The notes: generated by a model from the sequence alone, not told the origin. DNA of 32,000 bases from Fibrobacter succinogenes subsp. succinogenes S85 (GCF_000146505.1 NC_017448.1:1260001-1292000); one strand, 5' to 3'; numbered from the stretch's first letter, positions 1,688-29,105 are shown. Program-made: numbers and translations.

Positions 1688-1698
1688 AATAAACCCCC

Positions 1699-4425: not shown

Positions 4426-4548
4426 AGATCCTCCATTCTTGATATTATGAAAATAACATTTTCAAATATTCCAAGCAAGACCAAGCAACCCCCAACCTCA
4501 AAAAAAGTCAAAAAATTTTAAGATTTTTATGTCAAAATTAGACATTTT

Positions 4549-4597: not shown

Positions 4598-4660
4598 GCA
4601 TCACATTGACGCCGTTCAACAGAGCAACGCGGTCGCACACAAAATTCTATTTTATGGTCA

Positions 4661-5602: not shown

Positions 5603-5621
5603 GATCAGACATTCAAGACAT

Positions 5622-5650
5622 AAAAAAAAGCCCCGCCGAGGCGGGAACTT
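5622..5650 (-). terminator. Rho-independent terminator between convergent genes
   Basis: CCCGC-CGAG-GCGGG hairpin (5632..5645). The A8 run on the + side gives T8 on the minus strand, so it is strongest for the minus gene ending at 5672. Confidence 0.6.
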
Positions 5651-5671
5651 TAAACTTCGCTTTTCGAAGAA

Positions 5672-6310
5672 TTATTCTTCGGCGAGGGCTTCCTTGTATT
5701 CATCGACGGTAGCGATATACTCGTCAATCATGTCTTGCTTGGAATCCAGGTAAGCAAGAATCTTTTCGAGGTGTTCCTTGGAGAACACGGTCTTGAGCTG
5801 GCGTGAAGCATGGCCCTTGTAGCCCCATTCCTTGAGAATTTCGTCGGTCACAACGAAAGAATCGTCGAGGGAAACAAAACGCATCGGACCGTAAACAGCC
5901 CAGTTGTGTTCCATCTGCATGCATTCCGGTTCTTCCATTTCCGGGTTTGCCATGTAGCGCTGCACGTGACGGGTACGCACATCCTTGATCTTATCGATAC
6001 GCATGTAACCCATGATGAGGTACTTGTTACGCATTTCGGAATCGCTCAAGCCTTCGTAGCGGGTACCGAAAAGAATGTAACGGCTTTTGCTCTTCACAAT
6101 CGTGTTGATTGCCTTCACATTGTAGCAGCTCATCAGACCATAGGTGCTGGTTTCGTAGTTCGGTTCGTAAAGAAAACCCTTTTCATTTTCATTCAGCTGG
6201 TCGCGGACAGGCATTTCGGACTGATGGCTAGTTTCGACATAAAGCAGGCTACCTGCCATGTTGCCACGGTAGTCTTGCCAACCTTCGAGATTGATCTGTG
6301 TTTTCGGCAT
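5672..6310 (-). CDS. Hypothetical cytoplasmic protein (212 aa), no family recognised
   Basis: Long ORF with native-like composition, its own terminator, and an acidic C-terminal helix (DEYIATVDEYKEALAEE). I recognise no motif. Confidence 0.55.
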   Translation of the reverse strand: MPKTQINLEGWQDYRGNMAGSLLYVETSHQSEMPVRDQLNENEKGFLYEPNYETSTYGLMSCYNVKAINTIVKSKSRYILFGTRYEGLSDSEMRNKYLIMGYMRIDKIKDVRTRHVQRYMANPEMEEPECMQMEHNWAVYGPMRFVSLDDSFVVTDEILKEWGYKGHASRQLKTVFSKEHLEKILAYLDSKQDMIDEYIATVDEYKEALAEE

Positions 6311-6412
6311 TTTATAAATCCACTCAAATAGTTTAAAGTTCGAAAATTAAAACGAGTACAAGCGGACCGAGTACGGTTCGTCAGTAACAATTATCAAAAT
6401 ACAATTTACTTA

Positions 6413-7222
6413 TTAAAAAGTCAACGACTCCGCCGAAATATTTTCCATTCCAAAGCGAAAAGCGCCTTTTTTGAAGAATTCTGCGGTATCGGTCGTCAAA
6501 TAATGCACTGAACCGCCCTTTGAAAGCCGATTTTCCATGTCCACATGGCGCTTGAGGTAGTCCAAAGTCTTGTCGGCGACGATATCGCCCTGGACCACCA
6601 AGCGGACATGCGGTGGAAGTGCGGCCCGAATTTCATCCTCGAGGAGTGGGTAATGTGTGCAGGCCAGTAAAACTGTATCGATTTCAGGGTCAGCCGCGAG
6701 CAGCTGGTCCACGTCCTTTTTCACGAAGAATCGGGCGCCCTCGGTCCCGCGTTCACCGTATTCCACAAGCGGCACCCACATCGGGCAGGCGTGCTGCGTC
6801 ACCTTCAAGTTCGGGAAAAAATGGCTGATTTCAAGAACGTAGCTGTTCGAAGAGACCGTCCCTGCGGTAGCAAAAATGCCAATATGCCCCGTTTTCGAGA
6901 AGTTCCCAATCTCTTCGGCGGTCGGGCGGACAATGCCCAAAACGCGACGGTCCGGGAATTCGACCGGGAGCACCTGTTGCTGGATGCTGCGGAGCGCCTT
7001 TGCCGATGCCGTGTTGCACGCGAGAATCACCAGCGGACATCCGCGGTGGAAAAGTTCGCGCACGGACTGGAGCGTATAGCGGTAAATCGTCTCGAAACTG
7101 CGGGAGCCATACGGCGCACGGGCATTATCCCCCAGATACAGGTAATCGTACTGCGGGAGCGTGTGGCGAAGCTTCTGCAAAATCGTGAGCCCGCCAAATC
7201 CAGAATCAAAGACGCCGATCAT
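6413..7222 (-). CDS. murI: Glutamate racemase
   Basis: MIGVFDSGFGGLTIL...YLGDNARAPYG...ILACNTASA...LLACTHYPLL shows both catalytic Cys motifs (ACNTAS and CTHYP) and the canonical N-terminus. Confidence 0.92.
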   Translation of the reverse strand: MIGVFDSGFGGLTILQKLRHTLPQYDYLYLGDNARAPYGSRSFETIYRYTLQSVRELFHRGCPLVILACNTASAKALRSIQQQVLPVEFPDRRVLGIVRPTAEEIGNFSKTGHIGIFATAGTVSSNSYVLEISHFFPNLKVTQHACPMWVPLVEYGERGTEGARFFVKKDVDQLLAADPEIDTVLLACTHYPLLEDEIRAALPPHVRLVVQGDIVADKTLDYLKRHVDMENRLSKGGSVHYLTTDTAEFFKKGAFRFGMENISAESLTF

Positions 7223-9440: not shown

Positions 9441-9506
9441 TTTTTATTTTGCGCCCCTTAAGCGCGAAGTTCATATAGCAAAGGATATAGGTAAAGATTT
9501 AGCAAA

Positions 9507-10517
9507 CTATTGAGCGTTCTTTGCTGGTTCTATAGGCGTGGGTTTCTGCCCCACCAAAAATGCGACCGCACCAAACAAGCTCAAAATCAAACTTACAAAA
9601 TAAGCGAGCAACTGAATCACAACCGATTCAAGTCCAGGCACGCCTGCACGCGCAAAAAGCGACTGTGCCAAAAATTCACGCGGACCAAAACCGCCAATCG
9701 AAATCGGGAGCGCACTCACAATGGCGACTAGCGGAATGTAATAGAAGTACCACGACATCGAGAGGTTCACGCCCACCGCAATCCCGCAGAAAAAGTGAAC
9801 AAAGATGCGGAGAGACTGGGTTACCATCGAAAGGCAAATGATGTTAATCCAAAGTTTCTTGGAGCGGAACTTCTGGAATCGGTCAAACATGCGAAGGAGT
9901 CGTGTTTCAAACTTCTCGGGCAGCACCTTCCCCGCCATACGGCAGAAGAACTTGCCTATGCGACGGCTCAAAAGCCCTGCAAACATCACGCAGAAGCCAA
10001 GAAAAATCCAGACGGACGGCCACATGAACGCACGCTGTTCCGGATCGTGAATAAAGAACAAGGCGCCCACGCCAAGAGCAAACAACGTGATAAAGAAAAG
10101 TCCAAACAAGCGATCAAACACCGTCGCCGTAAAGCCCGCGCCAACCGTATCTTGCCCGCCCTGCATGCGGATATCGTAAACCTTCTTGACGTCACCGCCG
10201 ACGTTACCGGGCATAAAGTTGTTGAAGAAGAGCCCCACATGATAAAGCTTGAGGAGCCTAGCGTACTTGAGGCGAACACCCTGTTTTTCGAGCAAGAGTT
10301 TCCACTGGAGGCAAGCTGTAAAGTTCGAAACCGCGAGGCAAAGGAGCGCAAGCACAAGCGGGAAAACGCTGTTTTTCTTGAACAAGTTATAGAGGTCGCC
10401 AACATCCCATTCCGGGTCGCTCACAATGTTACGATAGACAAAGTAAGCAGGAACGAGCGTTACCACCAGCTTTAAGCAAAAAATAATTACCGACTTGAGC
10501 TTCGGATTCAACTTCAT
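9507..10517 (-). CDS. Flippase-like / LPG_synthase_TM (UPF0104) family integral membrane protein, paralog of 4661..5602
   Basis: Motifs FMPGNVGGDVKK and LPISIGGFGPREF, polytopic. I prefer the ATG at 10517 because it forms an ATGA overlap with the GT4 stop (10514..10517). The ORF-track start at 10532 is also possible. Confidence 0.7.
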   Translation of the reverse strand: MKLNPKLKSVIIFCLKLVVTLVPAYFVYRNIVSDPEWDVGDLYNLFKKNSVFPLVLALLCLAVSNFTACLQWKLLLEKQGVRLKYARLLKLYHVGLFFNNFMPGNVGGDVKKVYDIRMQGGQDTVGAGFTATVFDRLFGLFFITLFALGVGALFFIHDPEQRAFMWPSVWIFLGFCVMFAGLLSRRIGKFFCRMAGKVLPEKFETRLLRMFDRFQKFRSKKLWINIICLSMVTQSLRIFVHFFCGIAVGVNLSMSWYFYYIPLVAIVSALPISIGGFGPREFLAQSLFARAGVPGLESVVIQLLAYFVSLILSLFGAVAFLVGQKPTPIEPAKNAQ

Positions 10518-11659
10518 TTTCGTACGCTCCAATCAACCGTACGTTCCAACAATTCCAACGTTTCGCGGGCAGAATTTTCCCAGCTGAACGATTCGGCGTA
10601 ATGCTTGGCATTCTTGCCAAGATTTGCGCGCAGTTCAGCATCGCTATAAATTTTTTCCATTGCAGAAGCGCACGCGGTCGCATCTCCCGACGGGAACAGA
10701 ATTCCCGTCTCGCCGTCACGGACGCTATCGCAGAGTCCCGGCACATCCGACGCAATCGTCGTCTTGCAGAGCTGCGCCGCTTCCATCACCGTGAGGCCCC
10801 AGCCTTCCTTGTAGCTCGTCTGCAACAGCGCAAGCGAAGACGAAAGCAGTTCGTACTTGCGAGCGGCAGGCACAAAGCCCGTCAGTTCCACCTTGCCATC
10901 CAGGCCATGCGATTTAATCCAAGCTGGGAGCTTTTTCAAAAGCGGACCACCGCCCACAATTTTCAACTGGACTTCGGGATGCGACTTCGAAAAAATTTCA
11001 AACGCTTCAAGCGCCGTCCAAATACCTTTGTAACGGTGCACGCGAGAAAGCCAGATGAAATACGGGTTCGCCGCAGTCTCACTAGATTCTGCAGTACCTG
11101 TCGCGAGGTCCGCGCATCCCGGGAAATTCGGCTTTTCAGAACCGTTATAAATCACGGAAATTCGGCTTTCGTCCACGCCAATTTCGGCAAGTTCTTTCTT
11201 GGTACTCGGACTCACCACTACAAAATTCTGCGTGCGGTAAAAGAACGGAATAATCCGCTCAAAGAACCAGACCATAAACGCAATCGGGAAAAACGCTTCA
11301 GCAAAAATTGACTTCCGCCACAAATGATGCATCTGCACCAGGAGCGGCTTGCGGACGAACCAGTGGGCAAAGACCGGTAACTTGTTCAAATCTTCAACAA
11401 CAACGTCAAAGTCAAATTCGCGGTCAAGCTTCTTCAGATTCAGCGCTACCGTGAGCTGGAACATCAAATCGCCACCCTTGCGGATGACCTGAATTCCATC
11501 GACAATTTCGCGTTCTTTGGCTCCCGGAAATGTCGTCGTAAACAGGACCACCGTGTGGCCCATTTCTACAATCTTCGAGAAAATGCGATGCAAATGCTTT
11601 TCGGCGCCGCCGGCAGCCGGATGCATGCGATCCCGGTAATTTACGACGAGAATTTTCAA
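10514..11659 (-). CDS. Family 4 (GT-B, group 1) glycosyltransferase
   Basis: MKILVVNYRDRMHPAAGGAEKHL... N-terminus. The C-terminal EGWGLTVMEAA plus GETG motif is typical of GT4 retaining transferases. Confidence 0.85.
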   Translation of the reverse strand: MKILVVNYRDRMHPAAGGAEKHLHRIFSKIVEMGHTVVLFTTTFPGAKEREIVDGIQVIRKGGDLMFQLTVALNLKKLDREFDFDVVVEDLNKLPVFAHWFVRKPLLVQMHHLWRKSIFAEAFFPIAFMVWFFERIIPFFYRTQNFVVVSPSTKKELAEIGVDESRISVIYNGSEKPNFPGCADLATGTAESSETAANPYFIWLSRVHRYKGIWTALEAFEIFSKSHPEVQLKIVGGGPLLKKLPAWIKSHGLDGKVELTGFVPAARKYELLSSSLALLQTSYKEGWGLTVMEAAQLCKTTIASDVPGLCDSVRDGETGILFPSGDATACASAMEKIYSDAELRANLGKNAKHYAESFSWENSARETLELLERTVDWSVRK

Positions 11660-11667
11660 GCAATCAC

Positions 11668-12444
11668 CTAAGGCTTACGACCGATCACGCCAATGCAAAG
11701 CTGCGTGTAGTGCATCACCGGCACAGACTGGAGGCTATCCAAAATCTTGTCCTTAATCTTTTGGTAGGCCGTTCCGTCAAGCGGATACTTCGGGAGTTCA
11801 ATACCGAACTTGAAGCAGAGCTCGCGCAGAATGCGGTAGAAAAGATTCGGGCGCATCCAGTCGCCATAGGCATAGACATATTCAAAGCCAGCGTCACGCA
11901 TGAGCTTCTTGAGTTGCCCCATCGTGAACTGTTTTTCCCAACCGGCAAACCACTTGTCCATCGCAATCAAGATATGCTTGATAACCGTGTACGGGTGGAC
12001 GGTCTGCGGCACATCGCAAAGGCAGCAACCGCCATGCTTGACGATGCGGAAGTTTTCTTGCAAGAGCGGGAGTGAATCCTTGAAATGTTCGGCCAAACCC
12101 TGATGGAACACCAAGTCAAATGTGTTGTCCGGGAACGGGGACTTGAAAGCATCGCCACGAACTAAGTGCAAATTTTTGAAGCCTTCACTCTCACGGAGCG
12201 AATTGACAATTTTCAAGCTATTTTCGGCATAATCGAGAACATACACATCGGCGCCCAAACGAGCGAGTTCGGCACTGTCGCGGCCGGTACCTGCACCGAC
12301 CTCAAGCACCTTTAGGCCCTCGAGCTTAAAATTCTTCTTAATAGCTTCTATAATAGACGGCGAAGACGGATAGACTTTGTCCATGTCGTTCTTGCGCTGC
12401 CAAAAACGGTTCCATACGGATTGATCAGGCTCTTTTATTGACAT
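11668..12444 (-). CDS. Class I SAM-dependent methyltransferase
   Basis: Motif I VLEVGAGTGRDS, followed by the acidic residue after beta2 (VYVLDY). Confidence 0.85.
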   Translation of the reverse strand: MSIKEPDQSVWNRFWQRKNDMDKVYPSSPSIIEAIKKNFKLEGLKVLEVGAGTGRDSAELARLGADVYVLDYAENSLKIVNSLRESEGFKNLHLVRGDAFKSPFPDNTFDLVFHQGLAEHFKDSLPLLQENFRIVKHGGCCLCDVPQTVHPYTVIKHILIAMDKWFAGWEKQFTMGQLKKLMRDAGFEYVYAYGDWMRPNLFYRILRELCFKFGIELPKYPLDGTAYQKIKDKILDSLQSVPVMHYTQLCIGVIGRKP

Positions 12445-14763: not shown

Positions 14764-17448
14764 ATGGCAAAGAGCATAGAAGAACAGGTCGAGGATTGGT
14801 GCAAAAACCAACTAGAAAACTACTTTACCAAAACAGAGAGCATCAACTCAGAAATCGACAAAGCTCTTAAAACTGCTCCCAGCAAAAAAGGCGGTTCGGG
14901 CCAAAACCTTCCCGATATCAAATGCTTTGTATCTGTTGGTTTCAGAAATATCCCTGTCATGATTGAATGCAAAGGAACTAAAGGTGATTTCGCCAAAACA
15001 GACGAAAACGGATTAATATCCAATACAAATAAAAAAGGAGAAACAGATTATACCGCCATTACAAAATACGCCGTTAATGGAGCTATTCACTATGCAAAAT
15101 CAATTCTCGATTTTACTGAAACATATAAAGAAACAATTGCCATTGGAGTAAATGGCTATAAACAAGATAACGACTTGCAACTAGAAATAGGTGTTTACTA
15201 TTTATCAAAAGACAATCTCGCAATACCTAAGAAAGTTGGAGATTTCTCAGACCTGAGTTTCCTAAAAAAGAAAAACTTGAAAGAATTCTTTGAAAAAATC
15301 GACGAACTTAAACTGACGTTAGAAGAGATAGAAAGCAGAAAACTTGCTCTCGAAGATGAAATCGAAACCAAATTGAAGCGTCTAAACCAAACAATGCATG
15401 ACGATTTAAGTATCACAGTCAAATCAAGAGTGATGCTCATCGTTGGACTAATTATGGCGGGGCTTGGCGTTGAAGATGTTTCTGAAGGTCTTAAAGTTGA
15501 AGAATTAAAGGGAGAATTAGGTCCAAAATCGAATGATGCTCAAAAAATCATCAATAAGGTAGAAGACTTTTTACGGATGAAAAATCTTCCTGAAGAAAAA
15601 CGTGAAGCTATAATGCACGAGCTTTCAAATGTATTCAAAAATGAGGATCTTTACAAACCGAAGAATGGAGAAAGCAAACTGAGAAAAGTTTACGTTATCG
15701 TCCATAAGGATATCCTACCATATCTCACATCTGATTTGCCCAATATTGATTTTACAGGAAGGCTTTTCAACGTTCTCAATGATTGGGTCGATGTTCCTGA
15801 TGGTGCCGAAAATGATGTTGTTCTGACCCCTCGATATGTAACAGAATTGATGGCAAAACTTACTGAAGTCAATATGAACAGTTATGTTTGGGATTATGCT
15901 ACCGGTTCTGCTGGTTTCTTAATTTCAGCGATGCATTTAATGATCGCAGATGCAAAAAACAAGATAAAGAGCCCTGAAGAACTACGAAAAACAATCGCAA
16001 AAATTAAAGCAGAAAAACTATTAGGCATTGAGAAACTTCCTGAAATTTACATTCTCGCTGTTCTGAATATGATTTTGATGGGTGACGGATCGTCAAACAT
16101 TATCAATGGAGATTCAACACAATTTGATGGGAAATATAAACAAGGAAAAATGAAAGACAAAGAATTTCCGGCAAATGTGTTCCTGTTGAATCCGCCCTAT
16201 TCTGCCCCCGGCAAAGGATTAAATTTTGTAGAGAAAGCTCTTTCGAAGATGAAAAGTGGTAAAGCAGCTGTTCTAATTCAAGAGAATGCTGGGAGTACAC
16301 AAGGTGACGGTTACACAAAAAAAATTTTGAACAAAAATACCTTAATTGCATCCATACACATGAGTACTGATTTGTTTATCGGCAAATCAAGCGTGCAAAC
16401 AGCTATTTACGTTTTTGATGTAGGTATTCCTCATGATACTGAAAAACTTGTAAAGTTCATAGATTTTTCAAATGACGGTTACGCTAGACAAAATCGTAAA
16501 AAGTCTAGTCAAAGTGTAAATCTAAAAGACGCCGATAATGCAAAAGAACGCTACGCAGAACTCGTGAATCTAGTGGTTCGAGGTAAAGGAAAAGACGATA
16601 AAAATCTAAACTACTACAAAGACTGTTATGTAGAAGACTATATAACTAGTGAAGGAAATGATTGGACATATAGTCAGCACAAGAAAATAGACATTAAGCC
16701 TACAGAGAATGATTTCAAAAAAATTATCAAAGAATACATGGCTTGGCAAATCAGCAATCTTATAAGAAATGAAGACATTTATCCATGGACAAATAAATCC
16801 CCAGAGCAAAGCAATTGCATTCTTTCTAAAAAAGAACGTGATTGTATTCAAATGAAGAACGCAACATTCAAAGCAATTACCATTGGATCCTTATTTGATA
16901 TCCATCCAACCAAAGCATACAAAGCAACAAATAAGGATTTATTTAAGGAAAAAGGCAAAGTTCCCGTTGTAGCCAATTCCTCTGTAGATAATGGTATTGG
17001 CGGATGGACAAACCTAAAAGCAACAGAAAAAGGCAACAAGGTAGTATTTAGCGATACCACAACATCTGATTCTATATTTTATCAACCCAATGATTTTGTG
17101 GGTTATCCCCATGTCCAAGGACTATACCCATATTGTAACAAATGGGATGAAAACAGCTTATTGTATTTTATTACTTGTTTTAGAAAAAGTGCTTCAGGAT
17201 TATTTAATTACGGAAATAAGTTTACTAGGAAAAATGCTCTAAAAATGAAAGTTTTTCTTCCCGAAAAAAATAAGGAAGATATAGATTTCAGTTTTATGGA
17301 AACTTTCATTTCTGCACAAAAGAAACTCATTATTCAAAAATTGTCTTGTTGGCTAGAACAACAAAAAATCAATAACGAAATATACATAATAGAGAAAGAG
17401 ATTCCTCAAGACACACTTTCCATGATTGCGGAAAAGAAACATCATTAG
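14764..17448 (+). CDS. Single-polypeptide restriction-modification enzyme: N-terminal PD-ExK nuclease, gamma-class N6-adenine methyltransferase, C-terminal HsdS-like TRD (Type IIG/IIB-like)
   Basis: Nuclease motif ...GGSGQNLPD(51)IK...VMIE(68)CK(70)G. Methylase motif I VWDYATGSAGFL and motif IV NPPY (nt 16189..16200). The C-terminal ~200 aa (FKAITIGSLFDIHPTKAYK...VPVVANSSVDNGIGGW...FSDTTT...) resembles one specificity-subunit target-recognition domain. A hand-counted 60-nt sample is 32% GC, against 52% in valS. Confidence 0.8.
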   Translation: MAKSIEEQVEDWCKNQLENYFTKTESINSEIDKALKTAPSKKGGSGQNLPDIKCFVSVGFRNIPVMIECKGTKGDFAKTDENGLISNTNKKGETDYTAITKYAVNGAIHYAKSILDFTETYKETIAIGVNGYKQDNDLQLEIGVYYLSKDNLAIPKKVGDFSDLSFLKKKNLKEFFEKIDELKLTLEEIESRKLALEDEIETKLKRLNQTMHDDLSITVKSRVMLIVGLIMAGLGVEDVSEGLKVEELKGELGPKSNDAQKIINKVEDFLRMKNLPEEKREAIMHELSNVFKNEDLYKPKNGESKLRKVYVIVHKDILPYLTSDLPNIDFTGRLFNVLNDWVDVPDGAENDVVLTPRYVTELMAKLTEVNMNSYVWDYATGSAGFLISAMHLMIADAKNKIKSPEELRKTIAKIKAEKLLGIEKLPEIYILAVLNMILMGDGSSNIINGDSTQFDGKYKQGKMKDKEFPANVFLLNPPYSAPGKGLNFVEKALSKMKSGKAAVLIQENAGSTQGDGYTKKILNKNTLIASIHMSTDLFIGKSSVQTAIYVFDVGIPHDTEKLVKFIDFSNDGYARQNRKKSSQSVNLKDADNAKERYAELVNLVVRGKGKDDKNLNYYKDCYVEDYITSEGNDWTYSQHKKIDIKPTENDFKKIIKEYMAWQISNLIRNEDIYPWTNKSPEQSNCILSKKERDCIQMKNATFKAITIGSLFDIHPTKAYKATNKDLFKEKGKVPVVANSSVDNGIGGWTNLKATEKGNKVVFSDTTTSDSIFYQPNDFVGYPHVQGLYPYCNKWDENSLLYFITCFRKSASGLFNYGNKFTRKNALKMKVFLPEKNKEDIDFSFMETFISAQKKLIIQKLSCWLEQQKINNEIYIIEKEIPQDTLSMIAEKKHH

Positions 17449-20576: not shown

Positions 20577-20610
20577 AAAGAGGCACTCCCCCGCGGAGCG
20601 CCTCTTTTTT
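20577..20610 (+). terminator. Rho-independent terminator of valS
   Basis: AGAGGCACTCC-cccgc-GGAGCGCCTCT (11-bp stem, 1 mismatch) followed by T6. Confidence 0.8.
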
Positions 20611-20620
20611 ATCCCTCAAC

Positions 20621-20648: not shown

Positions 20649-20756
20649 TTAGACAAAGTAATAAAAAATAAGTTTTTTAAGACAAAAATTCATTACACAA
20701 CTCCCTCAAATTATGTATTTTACAATTATCAAATTGAACTATCCGGAGGAAATCCA

Positions 20757-22298
20757 ATGCATTTGAAGAGTTGTGGATTATCACTGTTTGCACTCGCTGC
20801 AGCATCATTTACGTTTACCGCATGTACCGATTCCAATCCAAGCACGCCATTCGCAAACACGCCTGTCGCAGGCCCCACAGAATCAAGCTCTTCAAGCGAC
20901 GGCATTCCTACCTCCAGCGAAAACCTTTCTAGCTCAGAAATTTTCGCATCAAGTTCTAGCAGCGCGCAGTCCCCTATTATACAAGCCGGATTCCAGACCT
21001 GGCGCGGGACCGACAAAGCACAACAAATCATAACCGGTTACGATGCAGGAACAGGAACTTCTGGCTACTGGTACGAAGTCAACGATTCTGCGTTTAACGG
21101 CGCATCAAAAGTTATTTGGGTCGCAGCAGCTTCCGAGCAATGCGAAGGCATTTGCGGAACATTTGTTCTGGATAGAGCAAACATGACCTACAACCCGTTC
21201 GCAGCAGTCGCATTCGATTTAGCGGGCAAAAATGCACAAGGCGAGCTCGTAGCTATTGATGCGACAGACATGGGAGGCATTTGCATTACCTACTCCTCCG
21301 ATTTCGCCCCGACTCTGGAACTTTCACTTGGCGAAGCACAAAACGCCATCTACGAATACGCACTCCCTATCAAAAGTCTCAGAAAAACAGCAACACCCGA
21401 AACATTCAACATCAAGTGGTCTGAATTCCTACAGCCCGCTTGGGCGAAAAACAAAATCACAAGCGAAGAAGCCATAAAGAAACTCGTTTCTATTCAATTC
21501 AAAGTTCAAGCAACAACCGGCAGCGAATCCAGATTCGACATTATAGAAGTCGGCAGTTACGGGAATTGCACATACACACCGCCACCGACACCACCCATTG
21601 ACCAAAACCCAGATTCCGATCCGAACCCGAACTTGCCCAAGACTTCACCGTTTGAAACCTGGTATGGTAGCCTCGGAGATTATCGAATCATAACCGGCTA
21701 CGATGCAGGAACAGAAACATCCGGATACTGGTTCACTTACGGAGACGACCCTATCGCCGGAGCATCTTATATTGTTTGGCCTGTAGAAACAGACTATATA
21801 CCAGGCGAAAACGATTGGATGGACCCCATCATAGACCATTGCGAAGGAATTTGCGGAACAATCGAATTTAACAAAGGAAAAATGACCGAAAGGAGTCCTT
21901 TTATCGGGCTAGGTTTCAACATTGCCGGAGAAAAAAGTCTAGACGACGATATATATACGGGTGAACCGGTTGATGCATCCGCTATGGGCGGCGTTTGCGT
22001 CACCTACACCTCCAACAACGACATAGACCTCATATTAGGGCTCGGCGCAAAAGAGGAAGAATACGATTACAACCTTCCCACCAAAGTACTCCCAAAGAGT
22101 CAAACACCTATGACCAAGTACGTTGCATGGGCAGATTTCAAACAACCGAGCGAAGGAAACGGAAAAAAGATTTCCGGTGAAGGAGCCGCAAAAATCCTAA
22201 CCATGATTAAATTCGAGATACCTGGGGAACACGGCACGCAAGCATCTGTCAACATCAAGTCCGTTGGGCCGTACAACGGTGGCGATTGCCATCCGTAA
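20757..22298 (+). CDS. Lipoprotein with Ser-rich tether and two copies of an unrecognised ~200-aa four-Cys module (paralog 1)
   Basis: Lipobox LAAASFTFTAC|T and a GGAGG RBS. Ser-rich linker. Each module has ...(T/E)W.G...I.TGYD.GT.TSGYW..., C.GICGT, MGG(I/V)C(I/V)TY.S, a K/W...F.QP motif, and a terminal G..(C). Confidence 0.8.
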   Translation: MHLKSCGLSLFALAAASFTFTACTDSNPSTPFANTPVAGPTESSSSSDGIPTSSENLSSSEIFASSSSSAQSPIIQAGFQTWRGTDKAQQIITGYDAGTGTSGYWYEVNDSAFNGASKVIWVAAASEQCEGICGTFVLDRANMTYNPFAAVAFDLAGKNAQGELVAIDATDMGGICITYSSDFAPTLELSLGEAQNAIYEYALPIKSLRKTATPETFNIKWSEFLQPAWAKNKITSEEAIKKLVSIQFKVQATTGSESRFDIIEVGSYGNCTYTPPPTPPIDQNPDSDPNPNLPKTSPFETWYGSLGDYRIITGYDAGTETSGYWFTYGDDPIAGASYIVWPVETDYIPGENDWMDPIIDHCEGICGTIEFNKGKMTERSPFIGLGFNIAGEKSLDDDIYTGEPVDASAMGGVCVTYTSNNDIDLILGLGAKEEEYDYNLPTKVLPKSQTPMTKYVAWADFKQPSEGNGKKISGEGAAKILTMIKFEIPGEHGTQASVNIKSVGPYNGGDCHP

Positions 22299-22315
22299 AG
22301 CAGTAGGAGCGCCAT

Positions 22316-23944
22316 ATGCTTTGCTCGCAAAAATTTTTCAAGCCGTATATATTAGCAGCCATCGCAGTTTCTGCAACCTTTGTCGCTTGCGGAGACTCCG
22401 ATACCGTGGCGCCTCCGCCCTCGTTTGAATCAAGCTCTTCTAACGGCGGTATTTTTGCATCGTCCAGTTCCGTTATAATTGCAGGTTCTTCAAGCGATTT
22501 CGCCGTTTCGTCAAGTAGCGTAGCGCTATCCAGTTCGCAGATTGCTCCATCCAGTTCCAGCGCACAGCCGCCCATAATCAAGACCAAAGAGGCTATTTGC
22601 GGTGACATGTGGTGCGCTCGTAGAGACCGAGATTCCCGCGTCAATACCGGTTTCGATGCAGGCTTCGAGACTTCCGGTTATTGGTTTGATGAATCCGACA
22701 CGGAATATCAAACGGAAGGTTCCACAATCACTTGGGAGGGCTTCGACAACAGAGATTGCACCTTCGCTGACGACTGCTTTGCAGATATGATTGAGCAATG
22801 CGGCGGCATTTGCGTAACACAAACGCTCGTAAAGCGAGACCAAGTAAACAATCTATACGCGAGTATCGGATTTAACGTTGCCGGTGTTGACGAACAAAAT
22901 AAACGTATCGTCACCGACATTTCTGAACTAGAAGGACTCTGCGTTGTTTACACCTCCGACACAGAGGTTTATCTCGAAATGCACATAGACGATGTTTCGA
23001 ATAAATATCTCGCCCTCGATTTTCCTCGCGCCACGCTTCCCCAAGCATCCACCCCCGTCATGAAAGATTTCACTTGGAAAGATTTCAAGCAAGACGGAAC
23101 AGGCAATATGAGGATATCCGGTGAAGACGCCGCAAAGAGTCTAGTCTCGCTCATGTTCACATTAAAGGGCAGTCAAGATGCATCCAATCACTTCAACATC
23201 ATGTCCATAGGTCGTTACGGAACATGCAGAACAGTCGCCAACGTAGATTCCGTTGCACAGCTCTCTAAAAGTCCATTCCGAACCTGGCATGGTTCTAGAG
23301 ATTTCGAAATCAAAACCGGTTACGACAACGGGAGTAAAACATCGGGTATATGGTTCAGCATTTTCGATGACCAGCAAAATGGCGCTTCATCAATAACCTG
23401 GCCGATAGACCCACCTTATGACAACTTCAGCGAGGACTCCTTTGACAGTTGGAGAATGGAGCTTATAGAAGAATGTAAGGGAATTTGCGCGGAATACTAT
23501 CTTAACAAATTCCAATTCCCCGACGAAAAAGAGCCATTTGTAGGAATTGGCATCATTATAGCTGGAGAAGAAATCAATCCCGAGAGCAATATATCCTACC
23601 TGACAACAATAGATGCAACAAACATGGGCGGGGTTTGCGTTTCGTACACATCCGACAATGACATGTATATACAAATGGGACTCGGCGATAAGAAAGACGA
23701 AGAACTGAATTACGCGTTGCCAATCGTTTCGATTCCCGCAAGCAAAGAAGTCAACACGGTGTACGTGAAATGGTCGCAATTCCAGCAGCCCTCATGGTAT
23801 GATGGAGACAAAAAGATTACAGGAGCAGAAGCCGCAAAATCACTAGCCGCAGTTCATTTCCTAGCGCACGGTCAAAGCGGTTCTGCAGGCAAATTCAACA
23901 TCATGTCTATCGGCCCGTACAACAGAGGCTACTGCTACCCATAA
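22316..23944 (+). CDS. Lipoprotein, paralog 2 of the two-module family
   Basis: Lipobox SATFVAC|G and an AGGAG RBS, 17 nt after paralog 1. A very Ser-rich tether is followed by two modules with CGGICVT/CKGICAE, EGLCVVYTSD/MGGVCVSYTSD, and W.DFKQ/WSQFQQPSWY. Confidence 0.8.
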   Translation: MLCSQKFFKPYILAAIAVSATFVACGDSDTVAPPPSFESSSSNGGIFASSSSVIIAGSSSDFAVSSSSVALSSSQIAPSSSSAQPPIIKTKEAICGDMWCARRDRDSRVNTGFDAGFETSGYWFDESDTEYQTEGSTITWEGFDNRDCTFADDCFADMIEQCGGICVTQTLVKRDQVNNLYASIGFNVAGVDEQNKRIVTDISELEGLCVVYTSDTEVYLEMHIDDVSNKYLALDFPRATLPQASTPVMKDFTWKDFKQDGTGNMRISGEDAAKSLVSLMFTLKGSQDASNHFNIMSIGRYGTCRTVANVDSVAQLSKSPFRTWHGSRDFEIKTGYDNGSKTSGIWFSIFDDQQNGASSITWPIDPPYDNFSEDSFDSWRMELIEECKGICAEYYLNKFQFPDEKEPFVGIGIIIAGEEINPESNISYLTTIDATNMGGVCVSYTSDNDMYIQMGLGDKKDEELNYALPIVSIPASKEVNTVYVKWSQFQQPSWYDGDKKITGAEAAKSLAAVHFLAHGQSGSAGKFNIMSIGPYNRGYCYP

Positions 23945-23967
23945 ACGACACTATTCAACTTGAAAAC

Positions 23968-23996
23968 AGGCACTCCACATGGAGTGCCTTTTTTTT
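23968..23996 (+). terminator. Rho-independent terminator after paralog 2
   Basis: AGGCACTCC-acat-GGAGTGCCT (perfect 9-bp stem) followed by T7. Confidence 0.85.
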
Positions 23997-24290
23997 GCGC
24001 TTTTCCAGCGTCATATTTTTGAAAGCAAAAAATTACATTACCATTTTTGGCTCAAAAAGCATGTATCATAAAGCACACCAATAGCACTACAACTCGTATT
24101 ATATAGAACAACATTCTTGATATTTCAGCACAAGTTCACGTATTATATTGAATAACCCTTTTGTATTAAAAAGAAATTCAGTATAACAAACAAAGTAACA
24201 AATTCATCTTTTGTACAAAAATTAATTTTTCTTTTCAATTTTAACTTATATATATTTTCAGTACCAACTTAAACGAATAGGAGGAACCTT

Positions 24291-25886
24291 ATGAACAGAA
24301 AACAGAGAAAATCATTCGGCAAGGCATCGCTTTTCGCGTTGATTGCCGCATCACTTCCATTTACAGCCTGTAGCTACTTGGATGACATCATGCCCCCGGA
24401 ACACGACCCGGGCCATGACCACCCGATAATCAGAAGCTCGTCAAGCAATCTCGTTGAATCATCTTCATCCACCGTACGTCCCCACTCATCTTTTGAGACC
24501 TGGTACGGCTATGAAGGTATTCCGCAAATTGAAACCGGATTTGGCAACGAAACAGAATCATACGGTTACTGGCTCTCTAAAAATGATGAAAGCGAAGGCG
24601 GACTTTCTCAAATCTTCTGGCCAGCCGAAAAGGGCAACGATTACAGCGACGACGCGATGGACAATATTATTGAGCACTGCGGCGGTCTTTGCGGTACATA
24701 CTTGCTCAATAAAGGTTCTATGACCTACAATCCGTTTGTTAGCGTCGGTTTCAACCTGGTTGGCGAAAGGGTCTTCGGTGACCCGACACCAGCACCTGCA
24801 AACGCCACAAGCATGGGCGGTGTCTGCGTCACTTATGCATCTGACATGATAGTTTCGCTTGAAATGGGCCTCACCGATGAAATGGAAGAAAACGTCGGTT
24901 ACGCCGTTCCGAGCGCAACCCTCCCCAAGAGCGCTACAGGCACGACAAAGTTCCTCTCCTGGTCTGATTTCAAGCAGCCCTCCTGGTATAAGGGTTCATT
25001 CAAGATGCCCGGCGAGAAAGCAGCCCAGCAGCTCGTTTCTCTCAGATTCAAATTCCAGGGAACAAGCGGTTCTCTCGGCAGCTTCAACATTGCAGCGGTT
25101 GGCCCATACGATGGCTGCAAGGACTCCATGTTCCCGGTCTACAAGCCAACGCCGACAATCCCTGACCCGGTGGACCCGCCTGATCCGATTGATCCTCCGG
25201 CACCGACAACAAACGATTTCGAAACCTGGTTCGGTTACAACAGCATTTACCAGATTCAAACCGGTTACGATAACGGCTCCGCAACATCTGGCTACTGGTT
25301 CAGCTACGGCGACGACGTTGATGGCGGCGCTTCAAAAATCGTTTGGCCAGTAGAACTCGGCAACGAATACAGCGATGACGCCATTGATCCGGTTATTGAC
25401 TACTGCGGCGGCCTCTGCGGCACAGCAATTCTCTCCAAGGGAACTCTGACTTACAGTCCGTACGTTGGCGTAGGTTTTGGTTTGGCTGGTGAATCGAAGT
25501 ATGGCGACCTCGAACCAGCCGATGCCGCAGGCATGGGTGGCGTATGCATCTCGTACATTTCCGATGTCGCACCGGCCCTTGAAATGAGCCTCGGCGAAGA
25601 AATGGACGCAGCCATCGGTTACGCATTACCGGCAGCATTCCTCCCGAAGAGCACCGTCGGCACGACAAAGTTCCTCAAATGGTCCGACTTCAAGCAGCCC
25701 TCCTGGTACAAGGGCGCCACCAAGATCACTGGCGAACAGGCTTCTAGAATGCTTGCATCCCTCAAATTCAAGATGCAGGCAGCTCCGGGTTCCTACAACT
25801 TCAACATTCAAGCCATTGGCCCGTATAACGGAGGCACATGCAGTAACACCTTCACAGCGGGTTCCAACAAGAAGAAACGCCACTAA
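24291..25886 (+). CDS. Lipoprotein, paralog 3 of the two-module family
   Basis: Lipobox SLPFTAC|S and an AGGAGG RBS. The two modules are visibly more similar to each other than those of paralogs 1 and 2 (ETW(Y/F)GY...TG(F/Y)..., CGGLCGT, MGGVC(V/I).Y.SD, KF L.WSDFKQPSWYKG, FNI.A(V/I)GPY.G). They are joined by a Pro-rich PDPVDPPDPIDPPAP linker. Confidence 0.8.
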   Translation: MNRKQRKSFGKASLFALIAASLPFTACSYLDDIMPPEHDPGHDHPIIRSSSSNLVESSSSTVRPHSSFETWYGYEGIPQIETGFGNETESYGYWLSKNDESEGGLSQIFWPAEKGNDYSDDAMDNIIEHCGGLCGTYLLNKGSMTYNPFVSVGFNLVGERVFGDPTPAPANATSMGGVCVTYASDMIVSLEMGLTDEMEENVGYAVPSATLPKSATGTTKFLSWSDFKQPSWYKGSFKMPGEKAAQQLVSLRFKFQGTSGSLGSFNIAAVGPYDGCKDSMFPVYKPTPTIPDPVDPPDPIDPPAPTTNDFETWFGYNSIYQIQTGYDNGSATSGYWFSYGDDVDGGASKIVWPVELGNEYSDDAIDPVIDYCGGLCGTAILSKGTLTYSPYVGVGFGLAGESKYGDLEPADAAGMGGVCISYISDVAPALEMSLGEEMDAAIGYALPAAFLPKSTVGTTKFLKWSDFKQPSWYKGATKITGEQASRMLASLKFKMQAAPGSYNFNIQAIGPYNGGTCSNTFTAGSNKKKRH

Positions 25887-25972: not shown

Positions 25973-26812
25973 TTATTTAGACAATTCAATTTCACGACAT
26001 TTACAACCCGAATAAAGGCCTGAAAAATCAGGATCTATATTCAATTTAGCATCCTCTAAAACCTGCTTTAATTCCTTTTCGTATTTTGATTCGGCTTTCT
26101 TATCTTTTTCACTATTTTCATCATCTTCAAACGAATCAAGCCTCGGATCAAAAGTCATACGTTTGATTAAGTTATTAAAAGATTTTTTATAGGAAACAAA
26201 AACAACTTTATTTTTATCAAAGTCTTTAATTTTTTTTGAGTTTTTATCCCAAACAATAAACAATCTCAATTCTTGCTCGTAACTAAAAGCTTTTCGCTTC
26301 AGAGACATTAAGCTAACATACGAACGTTCAAGTTTATCTTCAGTAAAATTTCGCTTTTTATGAACATTTTTTATTTCGTGTTCAAATTCATATTTAGCAG
26401 CAGCAAAATATATTCTAGCACTATGTTTATCAGCAAAAGAATTTAAAGCATCCAAAAGTTCATACAAATCAAATACTACACGAATATACGGTTCATCGGA
26501 AGTTTTGCTTCTACTCCAAAAAGCTTCAGCATTTTCACTTGAGGAACTTGTAAAGCAAAGACACGCCATGTTCGGTAAAGCAACGGACTCTTTAGGCTTC
26601 CCCTCCTTATTCTTCACAACCTTAACATCGTAGAAACGTTTTTCAAAAGGATCCTCCCACAATTCTGGCGACACAAAAGCAATTTGTCGATTTTTCAACA
26701 TTTCACAAACGCGGGAAAAAGGCATATAACGACAAACTTTAGGATTTTCCCAGTCAAGAGACAATTCACCAACGAAATGAACGTTATTCCAAATAAAAGG
26801 GGATTTCTTCAT
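25973..26812 (-). CDS. DUF2971-like protein (function unknown)
   Basis: Remembered DUF2971 pattern: an early helix plus F.SP..(W/F).DPFE (here QIAFVSPELWEDPFE), a mid C..(F)T....E....W..(Y/S) block (ACLCFTSSSSENAEAFWS), and a late K...(F/W)..E.E.R (KRKAFSYEQELRLF). I prefer the ATG at 26812, which has AAGGTG 8 nt upstream. The ORF-track start at 26821 is a GTG. Confidence 0.65.
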   Translation of the reverse strand: MKKSPFIWNNVHFVGELSLDWENPKVCRYMPFSRVCEMLKNRQIAFVSPELWEDPFEKRFYDVKVVKNKEGKPKESVALPNMACLCFTSSSSENAEAFWSRSKTSDEPYIRVVFDLYELLDALNSFADKHSARIYFAAAKYEFEHEIKNVHKKRNFTEDKLERSYVSLMSLKRKAFSYEQELRLFIVWDKNSKKIKDFDKNKVVFVSYKKSFNNLIKRMTFDPRLDSFEDDENSEKDKKAESKYEKELKQVLEDAKLNIDPDFSGLYSGCKCREIELSK

Positions 26813-26836
26813 TACTAACACCTTGTGTTTATAAAA

Positions 26837-28582
26837 TCAATTGAACAGGGCGTTAATTTCATCTGCAGTGAATTGACCTTCTGCAAACATATCCGTTATT
26901 TTGGTTCCCTGTTTCCATTTGCTTGCAATGTTCCACTTGGAAATATCACCATGGAAGGAAGATTCTTGAAACATACTTTCCATATCGGTAACATTGGAAA
27001 CATTCCACTTGGAAATATCACCGCTAAAGGTTGTTTTCATAAACATCTTCTTCATATCCTTTACATGGGACACCTCCCATTGAGACAAATCCGAAGATAC
27101 GTTACATCCCCAAAACATATAACTCATATCTTCTGCCTTGGAAACATTCCATTTACTGACATCGCCACTGAATTTCGATGCAGAGAACATCGCACTCATA
27201 TCTTTTACATTAGCAACATTCCAGTTGGAAACATTACCAGAAAACGTTGTCCCATGGAACATACTTTCCATATTCGTTACACTTGAAACATCCCACTTTG
27301 AAACATCACCATCAAAATTTTCGCATTTATCAAACATTCTTTCCATATTTGTGACTTTTGACACATTCCATTGACTGATGTCACCATTGAATTTGGAGCA
27401 AGCAAACATGCTACTCATATCCTTCACATTCGAAACATTCCAGTTCGAAATATCACCCGTAAATGAGGATCCGTAAAACATCTTCATCATATTCTCAACA
27501 CGAGAAACATTCCATGTAGAAATATTCCCATTAAATTTTGATTCAAAGAACAAACTGCGCATATTGGTTACATTAGAAACATTCCAATTGCTGATATTAC
27601 CATTAAAAATAGAGCCAGAAAAGCATCCTTCCATATCGGTAACTTTGGACGTATTCCACTTACTAATGTCCCCACTAAATTTGGACTTACGGAACATTCT
27701 ATACATTCTCGTTACATTAGACACATCCCAGTTGCTGATATCACCATTAAATTCGGACTCTTCAAACATGTTACTCATATTCGTCACACTAGAAACATCC
27801 CACTTGCTGATATCACCTTTGAATTTCGAACCATCCGCGAAATTCTGACCAAACATATTACTCATATCAGTCACACTTGATACAACCCAGTTGCTAATAT
27901 CTCCATTGAATTTGGAGCTAGCAAACATGTCACTCATATTCGTTACCTTTGAGACATTCCATTTACTGATATCGCCATTAAACTCCGACTCTCCAAACAT
28001 GTTATTCATATTCGTCACATTTGAAACATTCCACTTGCTAATATCTCCATTGAATTTGGAGCTAGCAAACATGTTACTCATATCCGTCACATTTGAAACT
28101 TTCCATTTGCTGATATCGCCATTAAATTCGGAGTGTTTAAACATTCCACTCATATTCGTCACATTTGAGACATTCCACTTACTGATATCACCATTGAATT
28201 CCGATTCACTATCGGAAAAATCATCGTCAACGCAACCAAACATATTACTCATATCAGTCACACTTGATACATCCCAATTGCTAATATTTCCATTGAATTC
28301 GGAGCCAGCAAACATGCTACTCATATCCTTCACATTCGAAACATTCCATTTACTGATATCGCCATTAAACTCCGACTCTTTAAACAGATAGCTCATATCT
28401 GTAATTTGAGATACATCGATATAATTCAAATCACAATTCGGCCCTTTACTTTCAATCGCCCTTTTGATCAACGATTGAAGTTCTTCCTTTCTTTTAGGAT
28501 GGTTTGCCAATCCAGCAATCATGCTATCAAAATCGTCCATGCGATCACGTTTTTTAAATAATCTGCTAAAAAAAGACATCAT
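26837..28582 (-). CDS. BspA-type leucine-rich repeat protein (DUF285 repeats), no signal peptide
   Basis: About 20 tandem 24-25-aa repeats of F..S.FNGDIS.WNVS.VT.M..MF. The N-terminus MMSFFSRLFKKRDRMDDFDSMIAGLANHPKRKEELQSLIKRAI is hydrophilic, with no Sec or lipoprotein signal. Confidence 0.85.
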   Translation of the reverse strand: MMSFFSRLFKKRDRMDDFDSMIAGLANHPKRKEELQSLIKRAIESKGPNCDLNYIDVSQITDMSYLFKESEFNGDISKWNVSNVKDMSSMFAGSEFNGNISNWDVSSVTDMSNMFGCVDDDFSDSESEFNGDISKWNVSNVTNMSGMFKHSEFNGDISKWKVSNVTDMSNMFASSKFNGDISKWNVSNVTNMNNMFGESEFNGDISKWNVSKVTNMSDMFASSKFNGDISNWVVSSVTDMSNMFGQNFADGSKFKGDISKWDVSSVTNMSNMFEESEFNGDISNWDVSNVTRMYRMFRKSKFSGDISKWNTSKVTDMEGCFSGSIFNGNISNWNVSNVTNMRSLFFESKFNGNISTWNVSRVENMMKMFYGSSFTGDISNWNVSNVKDMSSMFACSKFNGDISQWNVSKVTNMERMFDKCENFDGDVSKWDVSSVTNMESMFHGTTFSGNVSNWNVANVKDMSAMFSASKFSGDVSKWNVSKAEDMSYMFWGCNVSSDLSQWEVSHVKDMKKMFMKTTFSGDISKWNVSNVTDMESMFQESSFHGDISKWNIASKWKQGTKITDMFAEGQFTADEINALFN

Positions 28583-28595
28583 AAGCCCCTAGTAA

Positions 28596-29105
28596 TTAAC
28601 GTTTATTCTGCGAATCAAATTTTTCGGCTAATTTTTTTTGTCTAATAATATATTCTCTACCTTTTGTATTTTGACATCCAAAACACATTTTCTTAGAGGA
28701 TTTTTTTCGTTCAACATGAGCGCCATCCACATACTCATACGAGAAAGTTTTTATTGGATTTTTGTCCTCCAAAAAAAATTTATGGCAGCAACAGCACAAA
28801 GCATACGATTGCAAACAATCATTACACAATGGCTTACCTAAAGGGCTCTTAACAGCAGAAAGCCCCTGTTCTTCATTAAATGTAGCCTCACAACGAAAAC
28901 AGGTAAACGTTTTCAATCCCGCAATACGTTTTGCTTCGGCGGCTTCCCTCAAAGCTCTAGCAGAGTCTTCAGCAGCTTGACGCTGAAGTTCTTCCATCCG
29001 TTCGCGATGTTCTTCTTCTTCAATTTTTTCGTTATAACAATCCTGACATAGCCCATCAGATAAATAACCTTCTTCCCGAACTCCACACCTTCTACACAGA
29101 GCCAT
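28596..29105 (-). CDS. Cys-rich zinc-ribbon / coiled-coil protein (169 aa, function unknown)
   Basis: N-terminal CRRC-x14-CQDC, followed by an acidic/charged helix EEEEHRERMEELQRQAAEDSARALREAAEAKR. The C-terminal part has CFRC-x22-CNDC, then a CCCCH cluster and CFGC. GAGGA RBS. It lies 13 nt upstream of the LRR gene. Confidence 0.65.
   Translation of the reverse strand: MALCRRCGVREEGYLSDGLCQDCYNEKIEEEEHRERMEELQRQAAEDSARALREAAEAKRIAGLKTFTCFRCEATFNEEQGLSAVKSPLGKPLCNDCLQSYALCCCCHKFFLEDKNPIKTFSYEYVDGAHVERKKSSKKMCFGCQNTKGREYIIRQKKLAEKFDSQNKR

Follow-up and report, generated by a model that had tools for sequence, protein, structure and literature searches.

Tandem Fibrobacter lipoproteins with diverged CBM11/CIA30-like modules as putative surface glycan-binding proteins

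A stretch of 32,000 nt from the genome of Fibrobacter succinogenes subsp. succinogenes S85 (NC_017448.1:1260001-1292000; this whole stretch is hereafter called the window, with positions counted from its first letter) carries three adjacent genes between positions 20757 and 25886, designated P1, P2 and P3, each of which codes for a predicted lipoprotein with two copies of one module. We consider it rather probable (about 60%) that these are surface-displayed lipoproteins whose non-catalytic modules resemble type-B carbohydrate-binding modules (CBMs) and bind plant glycan chains. Judged from its predicted fold and from profile comparisons, the module is a strongly diverged branch of the CBM11/CIA30 superfamily and not an unplaceable fold, although the family itself is without an entry in Pfam, NCBIfam, CAZy or PDB.

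The three lipoprotein genes and their six modules

Three + strand open reading frames (ORFs) of 513, 542 and 531 amino acids (aa) were found exactly where an earlier examination of the DNA, made by a model without database searches (the sequence-only reading), had placed them. The ORFs, their lipoboxes and six modules delimited with a family hidden Markov model (HMM) bear out its description of neighboring genes with a lipobox, a Ser-rich tether and two modules each. The features of the locus are as follows.

20580..20611, + strand: putative intrinsic terminator after valS, an imperfect GC hairpin with a T-run, spotted by eye
20745..20749, + strand: P1 ribosome-binding site GGAGG, 7 nt before the ATG at 20757
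20757..22298, + strand: P1, 513-aa lipoprotein with two modules (ORF)
20757..20825, + strand: P1 signal peptide and lipobox ..SFTFTAC, with Cys23 at nt 20823-25 (pattern inspection)
20826..20990, + strand: P1 Ser-rich tether, 53% S/T/P by composition; the P3 equivalent is disordered in the structural model
20991..21569, + strand: P1 module a, aa 79-271 (family HMM E 2e-70, whole profile covered)
21651..22289, + strand: P1 module b, aa 299-511 (family HMM E 2e-76)
22305..22309, + strand: P2 ribosome-binding site AGGAG, within the 17-nt gap between P1 and P2
22316..23944, + strand: P2, 542-aa lipoprotein, lipobox ..ATFVAC, with Cys25 at nt 22388-22390 (ORF)
22601..23227, + strand: P2 module a, aa 96-304 (family HMM E 1e-67)
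23276..23935, + strand: P2 module b, aa 321-540 (family HMM E 9e-72)
23968..23989, + strand: intrinsic terminator after P2, a 9-bp stem with 6 GC pairs followed by a T-run (scan)
23990..24290, + strand: AT-rich spacer before P3, the presumed site of a P3 promoter
24280-24284, + strand: P3 ribosome-binding site GGAGG, within the P2-P3 spacer
24291..25886, + strand: P3, 531-aa lipoprotein with two modules, lipobox ..LPFTAC, with Cys27 at nt 24369-24371
24492..25118, + strand: P3 module a, aa 68-276 (family HMM E 4e-88)
25218..25841, + strand: P3 module b, aa 310-517, chosen for modelling

The six modules are about 205 aa long and match the family HMM with E-values from 1e-67 to 6e-94; their mutual identity is 29-56%, with 27 invariant columns including four Cys. 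Strict invariance did not hold for all the landmarks that had been called invariant, as P2 module a reads GDMWCA and LEGLC. Over their full length the three proteins match each other in BLASTP with E-values of 1e-95 to 1e-128, P1 being 41% identical to P3 and 36% to P2, the most divergent of the three paralogs. The internal repeat is detected within the proteins by BLASTP with E-values as low as 3e-53, far outside chance. Ser, Thr and Pro together make up 42-53% of the tether residues in P1-P3.

The hairpin at 20580..20611 was skipped by the terminator consensus scan due to a mismatch in its stem; as it is a likely terminator, the P1-P2 unit is regarded as separated from valS. P1 and P2 lie 17 nt apart, precisely as had been reported, the terminator scan of the + strand between them found none, and the two genes are probably co-transcribed. 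With regard to P3, for which an AT-rich promoter region had been proposed, the 346-nt intergenic region (23945-24290) is indeed only 29% GC, but promoter-like hexamers occur in the scan with no excess over the shuffled expectation, so no promoter is claimed.

Placement of the module by sequence and predicted fold

The Pfam scan of P1, P2 and P3 gave no matches at E≤1, and no genuine match was obtained for them in NCBIfam or for a six-module profile among the PDB sequences. An NCBIfam match to SslE (E 0.017), located over the Pro-rich linker, was dismissed as noise, and a PDB-sequence match to McyG at E 0.1 as chance. In agreement with the sequence-only reading, which had set the module apart from the TIGR02145 and fibro-slime patterns, neither Fib_succ_major (TIGR02145/PF09603) nor fibro-slime was matched in P1-P3 with Pfam or NCBIfam; PF09603 occurs solely as a separate fused domain in some long members of the family. 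The CBM11 profile (PF03425, curated threshold 27 bits) was reached by no window protein, P1-P3 giving no match at E≤1, and the CIA30 profile (PF08547, threshold 24 bits) was not matched by any window module. A scan of 69 family modules against Pfam with a lax threshold gave weak recurrent matches to CIA30 (5 modules, all sub-threshold, best E 0.0015), Sde0182_C (3 modules) and CBM_11 (1 module, E 0.08). Weak matches to OprF (6 modules) and OMP_b-brl (2 modules) were rejected as compositional or beta-strand noise because the structural model is a soluble sandwich.

This model was produced for P3 module b with AlphaFold2 (AF2) from A2, an alignment of 69 diverse modules, and is a beta-sandwich with a few short helices (predicted local distance difference test score, pLDDT, 97.5; predicted template modelling score, pTM, 0.92). 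The best Foldseek match in the PDB is CBM11 1v0a (E 2e-5, probability 1.00, template modelling score, TM, 0.40/0.47, root-mean-square deviation 8 Å), and the second distinct one is CIA30/NDUFAF1 7zkp_A (E 3e-5) with the highest TM, 0.54. The CBM11/CIA30-like sandwich proposed earlier from the overall layout is thus what the two top distinct matches represent. Further PDB matches include CBM29, the laminarin-binding X584, CBM-like N-terminal domains of GH50 agarases (GH, glycoside hydrolase), CBM61 and CBM30. CIA30 apart, the best PDB matches are all sandwiches that bind glycan chains. The viral library returned only phage tail-fibre and spike sandwiches at a comparable distance. Since the superpositions are modest at about 10% identity, Foldseek is taken here to give the fold class and not family membership. 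The idea of a lytic polysaccharide monooxygenase was rejected, the mature N-terminus being Phe and not His and the organism a strict anaerobe.

In the AF2 model of full-length P3, residues 1-64, 289-306 and 520-531 are disordered while both domains have pLDDT values above 90, and the overall pTM is 0.47; the modules are thus predicted to be arranged like beads on a flexible string.

A sequence bridge to CBM11 and CIA30 is provided by distant relatives joined to GH8 enzymes. The most divergent relative found in reference genomes, protein P0424 of a digester Fibrobacter metagenome-assembled genome (MAG; locus L008), is matched by the module HMM (about 1e-17 to 1e-18), by Pfam CBM_11 with 23.1 bits (E 8e-5), short of the cutoff of 27, and by CIA30 with an E-value of 0.006. 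Its full-length homologs P0425-P0427 from Fibrobacter and Chitinispirillaceae, one of which is named endo-1,4-beta-D-glucanase Y by its source, consist of GH8, an InlB-type repeat, the module and the tail of the type IX secretion system (T9SS). Proteins of this architecture match the module HMM at 1e-16 to 1e-18, and their modules score 23-24 bits against CBM_11, below the 27-bit cutoff; the P0427 module scores 25.3 bits against CIA30, over the cutoff of 24. Aligned with hhalign, the window family and the GH8-appended modules match with 99.2% probability (E 7e-20, 156 columns, 28% identity) and have the motifs WF.Y.D..DGG.S, Y.PFVGVGF and W..F.QP.W in common. The GH8-appended modules sit C-terminal to the endoglucanase, which is the classical CBM position. 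As they lack all four Cys and the CxxxC-bearing helix, both of these features are elaborations of the window branch.

The fold, the bridging matches and the hhalign alignment lead to the placement of the window module given above. The statement that it could be placed in no named family thus stands for direct searches of Pfam, NCBIfam and PDB sequences, but not at the superfamily level.

Cysteines, lipidation and export signals

The pairing of the four Cys was assessed by covariation in 341 non-redundant modules. Both Cys of the CxxxC pair were lost jointly 7 times in at least 3 lineages, with about 0.3 such events expected by chance. Losses of the MGGVC Cys (36 single) and of the terminal Cys (31 single) were independent, with 3 double losses against about 4 expected, and pairing between these two was rejected. 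Because its two Cys vanish together, one disulfide per module, or another paired role, is supported at CxxxC; of the two disulfides per module that had been proposed, the covariation backs this pair only. P2 module a, with the N-terminal part of P2 that precedes it (22316-23227 in the window), contains four additional Cys, C95, C100, C148 and C154, and GDMWCA replaces FETW.G in it. The CGD(L/M)WC start of this type recurs in some distant homologs, P0076 and P0088 among them, and may mark a subtype of the module that has additional disulfides.

According to pattern inspection, the lipoboxes FTAC, FVAC and FTAC of P1, P2 and P3 follow a basic n-region and a hydrophobic h-region. All three proteins were classed as signal peptidase II lipoproteins by the lipobox that closes their signal peptide (consensus [LVI][ASTVI][GAS]C), Phe at -3 being usual in the family, where 98 lipoboxes include FTAC 27 times, MVAC 22 times and LTAC 9 times. 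Asp or Glu is present within 5 residues after the lipidated Cys in 97 of the 98 lipobox members, with Asp at +2 in 55; the residues at +2 in P1, P2 and P3 are T, G and S, respectively. Acidic residues after the lipidated Cys are a surface-export signal in Bacteroidota and Asp at +2 is an inner-membrane retention signal in E. coli; in Fibrobacter these residues may act in either way.

The T9SS sorting domain Por_Secre_tail (PF18962) is missing from P1-P3 in the Pfam scan, and many paralogs have this module combined with a C-terminal T9SS domain in place of the lipobox. Every member bears an export signal, either a lipobox or a signal peptide together with the T9SS domain.

Family size and domain architectures

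A word-indexed search with P3 gave 450 matches, of which all the named ones come from Fibrobacter, and an exhaustive HMM search of 1.84 billion representatives gave 1,051 clusters (at 50% identity) with E≤1e-3, 437 of them with E≤1e-30. Among species-representative genomes, a scan with a single protein found 8 loci, all in Fibrobacter MAGs. Judged from these searches, the family appears to be restricted to Fibrobacter/Fibrobacterota. More than 1,000 clusters retain the module core together with its surface-candidate aromatic motifs. Proteins of the family contain from one to five modules; the first 120 homologs include 94 with two modules, 15 with one and 11 with three. Extra domains in the long members are Fib_succ_major, PKD, Listeria-Bacteroides repeats, beta-helix repeats and the carbohydrate-binding beta-helix Cthe_2159.

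Paralogs induced on cellulose in F. succinogenes S85

Two S85 loci with T9SS-type paralogs are located next to glycoside hydrolase genes. In the first (L009, CP001792, 1501839-1518768), whose twelve called genes correspond one-to-one to Fisuc_1219-1230, FSU_1684 (= Fisuc_1223), coding for a 309-aa protein with one module and a T9SS tail, heads a tandem trio of genes of this kind flanked by the GH5 cellulase gene FSU_1685/Fisuc_1224 and the GH8 gene Fisuc_1219, with an Opp-type ABC importer adjoining. In the second, three GH43+CBM6 genes are followed by Fisuc_2620 (= FSU_3189; two modules and a tail) and by three genes with a single module each.

Expression and fraction data were taken from the S1 and S3 Tables of Burnet et al. 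2015 (PMC4668043), to which the following values, given as reads per kilobase per million mapped reads, are limited. Fisuc_1223 is listed there with 8,203 ± 869 on cellulose and 1,818 ± 97 on glucose (q 2e-34), the cellulose value being the highest among the table rows compared, and as detected in the outer-membrane, extracellular and periplasmic fractions. Its paralogs have lower values on cellulose and glucose, namely 97 and 29 for Fisuc_1222, 113 and 53 for Fisuc_1221, and 98 and 65 for Fisuc_2620. The CAZy column is blank for the family genes in these tables and the text of that paper nowhere discusses them by name. The neighboring FSU_1685 is up-regulated on cellulose and is part of an outer-membrane vesicle complex (Raut et al. 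2019, PMC6851124). A full-text literature search with FSU_1684/1683/1682/3189 and the UniProt/GenBank accessions found no paper, and none of these identifiers is present in the supplements of PMC6851124 and PMC6204037; Fisuc_1223/FSU_1684 appears to be uncharacterised in the searchable literature, where it is listed as 'hypothetical protein'.

A hypervariable slot between valS and an amidotransferase gene

The P1-P3 locus occupies a slot between two conserved genes, valS and a downstream amidotransferase gene, whose products in related Fibrobacter genomes are 98.5-99.5% and 94-99% identical to those of the window. The slot itself holds one to three family genes in combinations that differ between genomes. 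A single P3-like gene, 56-70% identical, is found in L001, L002, L004 and L007; L003 has a P1-like gene (65%), a one-module gene and a P3-like gene (57%); and Fibrobacter sp. UWB12 has a P2 ortholog (90%), a 168-aa gene and a P3-like gene (55%).

Between the window and L002, the nonsynonymous (dN) and synonymous (dS) divergences are 0.011 and 0.12 for valS and 0.010 and 0.36 for the MBL gene, as compared with 0.19 and 0.86 for P3 and its counterpart (dN/dS 0.22). As the P3 values exceed those of valS and the MBL gene, the slot alleles are regarded as far older than their flanks. This pattern fits recombinational cassette replacement or balancing selection, judging from the sequences compared, and simple acceleration does not fit. 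Such a mosaic of ancient alleles would be a clean system for studying the diversification of surface proteins in gut bacteria.

Both sides of valS are occupied by genes that differ between strains. Directly after P3, a three-gene insertion of 36% GC (25973-29105, - strand) comprises genes for a 282-aa protein matching PDC-S31 (PADLOC candidate defence, E 9e-27) and for a 581-aa protein in which DUF285 (BspA-like) repeats occur eight times, together with a 169-aa ORF without a match; it is missing from the same slot in L001-L004, L007 and L014. Just upstream of valS, a 35% GC segment (14764-17448, + strand) codes for an 894-aa Type IIG restriction-modification enzyme (PADLOC REase_MTase_IIG, E 3e-187), a position taken by different genes in other genomes, such as a McrB-like one in UWB12. 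Owing to these differing genes on both sides, the valS flanks look like variable or defence islands. In L007 (MAG RUG14562), valS appears duplicated or fragmented, with two partial copies of 83-99% identity upstream of the lipoprotein slot (1227-7339); the boundary of the slot may truly have been rearranged, or the MAG may have been misassembled there.

A second slot was noted in L015 and L016 (about 5800-11800), with two family genes in the former and one in the latter. These code for lipoprotein-type members of about 600 aa with an extra Cys-containing N-terminal region. The slot is bounded by S41 peptidases together with an AIPR abortive-infection gene on one side and by acetyl-CoA carboxylase and the T9SS translocon gene sprA on the other.

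Proposed surface glycan binding and the alternatives

If the proposed role is correct, P1-P3 would be lipid-anchored in the cell envelope and exposed on the surface of the outer membrane, where a flexible Ser-rich stalk of about 40-70 residues would present two beta-sandwich modules that are independent of each other and connected through a short Pro-rich linker. Each module would grip one glycan chain, be it beta-glucan, amorphous cellulose or hemicellulose, and the two modules per protein would provide avidity. The cell or its vesicles could in this way be held on the plant fibre, or released chains could be kept at the surface beside secreted glycanases, a role akin to that of SusE/F-type surface glycan-binding lipoproteins but without a polysaccharide-utilisation locus (PUL). 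The genes reside in a recombination-prone slot between conserved housekeeping genes, with strains differing in gene number and in very old divergent alleles.

A surface carbohydrate-binding role is plausible in view of T9SS or lipid anchoring, the GH neighborhoods, the induction on cellulose and the S85 fraction proteomics. As relatives are strongly switched on during growth on cellulose, the window lipoproteins are good candidates for gripping plant material. What the analysis shows is how the genes are built, the repetition of the module, its fold and superfamily link, the spread of the family, the signals for anchoring and the variability of the locus, to which published data add the expression and location of S85 paralogs; the surface exposure of the lipoprotein forms, the binding of glycans and the nature of the ligand are what we infer.

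Several points weigh against this proposal. The lipoprotein-type genes lie among housekeeping genes, with defence genes nearby and no CAZyme/GH neighbors. The GH adjacency and the expression data concern the T9SS-type S85 paralogs, so this evidence reaches the window proteins only via module homology, and FSU_1684 itself is absent from the proteins quantified in the cellulose versus glucose envelope proteome (PMC6851124). The window proteins and their close relatives stay under every Pfam CBM threshold, and the Foldseek TM values are modest (0.40-0.54) at the low identity noted above. Asp at +2, common among the lipobox members (55/98), indicates inner-membrane retention under the E. coli rule. 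Finally, a Pfam scan found no GH or other catalytic fusions among the close members (240 listed homologs, 16 long representatives).

The strongest competitor, which we regard as unlikely but serious, is that P1-P3 are variable surface antigens or coat proteins whose diversity is driven by phages, predators or host antibody, the sandwich being a scaffold or a receptor and allele swaps serving to evade recognition. It would account for the slot, where one to three genes that are 55-70% identical (one 90%) stand between near-identical flanks and where the P3 divergence (dN 0.19, dS 0.86, against 0.011 and 0.12 for valS) indicates old alleles exchanged by recombination. It would likewise suit the defence genes bordering the slots (Type IIG restriction-modification, PDC-S31, McrB and AIPR), the position of lipoprotein-type members away from CAZyme genes and the phage tail-fibre receptor-binding domains that Foldseek retrieves at a similar distance. 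However, a dN/dS of 0.22 implies no overall positive selection, the module core with its surface-candidate aromatics is kept in more than 1,000 clusters, and the same module is found on GH8 enzymes and, in S85, lies beside cellulases and is induced along with them. The two explanations are compatible, as a glycan-binding adhesin may also be a variable antigen.

Binding of a non-plant glycan, such as the capsule or lipopolysaccharide of the cell itself, glycans on other microbes in co-aggregation or host mucus, with a role in envelope or biofilm organisation, is less probable still. The slot in the window and in UWB12 adjoins glycosyltransferase and surface-polysaccharide genes, the fusion partners are adhesin-type domains and not enzymes, and high allelic diversity would suit variable glycan targets. 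The induction of S85 paralogs on cellulose and their location beside GH5, GH8 and GH43 genes argue for plant material instead, as do the nearest relatives (CBM11, CBM29, CBM30 and the GH8-appended modules), which bind plant beta-glucans or mannans.

We give very little credence to an unrecognised enzyme, such as a novel glycanase or lyase built on a jelly roll of the kind seen in GH11, GH12 or GH16. Although jelly-roll folds do host glycoside hydrolases, conserved acidic residues are present (e.g. D32 and D102), and an S85 member very highly expressed on cellulose has no assigned function, no catalytic jelly roll is among the significant Foldseek matches (GH12 has only probability 0.33 and TM 0.22), sequence inspection found no ExDxxE-type catalytic motif, and in the bridging proteins the module is preceded by a spacer and, before that, by a complete GH8 catalytic domain, placing it where a binding module sits.

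Retention in the inner membrane facing the periplasm, where the proteins would help to assemble or chaperone envelope complexes in the manner of CIA30, is similarly improbable: the frequent Asp at +2, CIA30 being one of the two best structural matches and the commonest weak Pfam match judged genuine, and the listing of Fisuc_1223 in the periplasmic fraction too (PMC4668043, tables) are outweighed by T, G and S at +2 in P1, P2 and P3, by the same module on T9SS cargo with paralogs in the outer-membrane and extracellular fractions, by long Ser-rich stalks and multi-module adhesin fusions that suit extracellular display, and by the post-Cys acidic residues if the Bacteroidota export rule extends to Fibrobacter.

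A bolder suggestion may be made, which for now is doubtful: the family would be a major overlooked non-catalytic part of the Fibrobacter cellulose-degradation machinery, an abundant, cellulose-induced chain binder displayed on the surface or on vesicles. If that were true, a protein such as FSU_1684/Fisuc_1223 could serve in adhesion and pass individual glucan chains on to neighboring endoglucanases, the hypervariable lipoprotein cassettes could tune strain-specific substrate or niche specificity, and the modules would constitute a new CAZy CBM family found mainly in stand-alone multi-copy surface proteins. Fibrobacter succinogenes ranks with the most effective degraders of cellulose in the rumen, and the way in which it binds and attacks cellulose is a long-standing question. 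To our knowledge, it has neither cellulosomes nor known processive cellulases. The family could supply a missing adhesion or substrate-capture component as well as a new CBM family.

Comparison with known systems

The best PDB match, CBM11 (PF03425), represented by CtCBM11 of Clostridium thermocellum Lic26A-Cel5E (PDB 1v0a/6r3m), belongs to the same beta-jelly-roll class and is similar in size. With about 13% identity to 1v0a and TM values of 0.40-0.47, the window modules have the same fold class without close superposition. Unlike CBM11, they have an extra helix with the CxxxC pair, a conserved Cys in a buried strand and a terminal Cys, they end with FNIxxxGPY instead of a (W/F)IDD(I/V) strand, and they occur in multi-copy lipoproteins or T9SS cargo with no enzyme attached. 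CBM11 takes up beta-1,4 and beta-1,3-1,4 glucan chains in a Tyr-lined cleft, and by analogy binding of a single beta-glucan chain would be the likely mode of the window modules. The CBM11, CBM29 and CBM30 relatives bind plant beta-glucans or mannans according to CAZy. CBM29, CBM30, CBM61 and X584, all type-B CBMs, have the same sandwich topology with weaker Foldseek matches (E 4e-4 to 1e-2) and no sequence signal. Two of these families, CBM30 and CBM11, are present together in the F. succinogenes cellulase FSU_0382 (PMC6851124, Table 1).

CIA30/NDUFAF1 (PF08547, PDB 7zkp_A), the second structural match with the highest TM and the weak recurrent Pfam match of the family, assists the assembly of complex I in the mitochondrion or the cytoplasm. 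The window family differs from it in being exported, tandemly repeated and, as predicted, surface-anchored, which does not agree with an intracellular role in complex I assembly.

The GH8-InlB repeat-module-T9SS endoglucanases (P0424, P0425-P0427) are true homologs, belong to the same phylum and are secreted by the route that the T9SS-type paralogs take. Their modules are about 28% identical to those of the window, have none of the four Cys and no helix/CxxxC insert, and occur in one copy joined to the catalytic domain. It is only in this distant branch that the module is part of a carbohydrate-active enzyme, as CBMs are defined in CAZy, and not in the window proteins or their close members.

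As a working analogy, the SusE/SusF-type surface glycan-binding proteins of Bacteroidota have a lipidated N-terminus, a flexible tether and tandem non-catalytic CBM-like sandwiches, and P1-P3 are likewise predicted to be lipoproteins of tandem non-catalytic CBM-like beta-sandwich domains. Both groups are found in fibre- or starch-degrading members of the FCB group, with no sequence or specific fold relationship between them; SusC/SusD-like genes were found neither in the window nor in any related locus examined, and there is no PUL. Neither the fold class nor the notion of CBM-like proteins at the surface is new, while the CxxxC helix insert, the stand-alone multi-copy architecture, the two alternative anchoring systems and the mosaic hypervariable slots are distinctive of this family.

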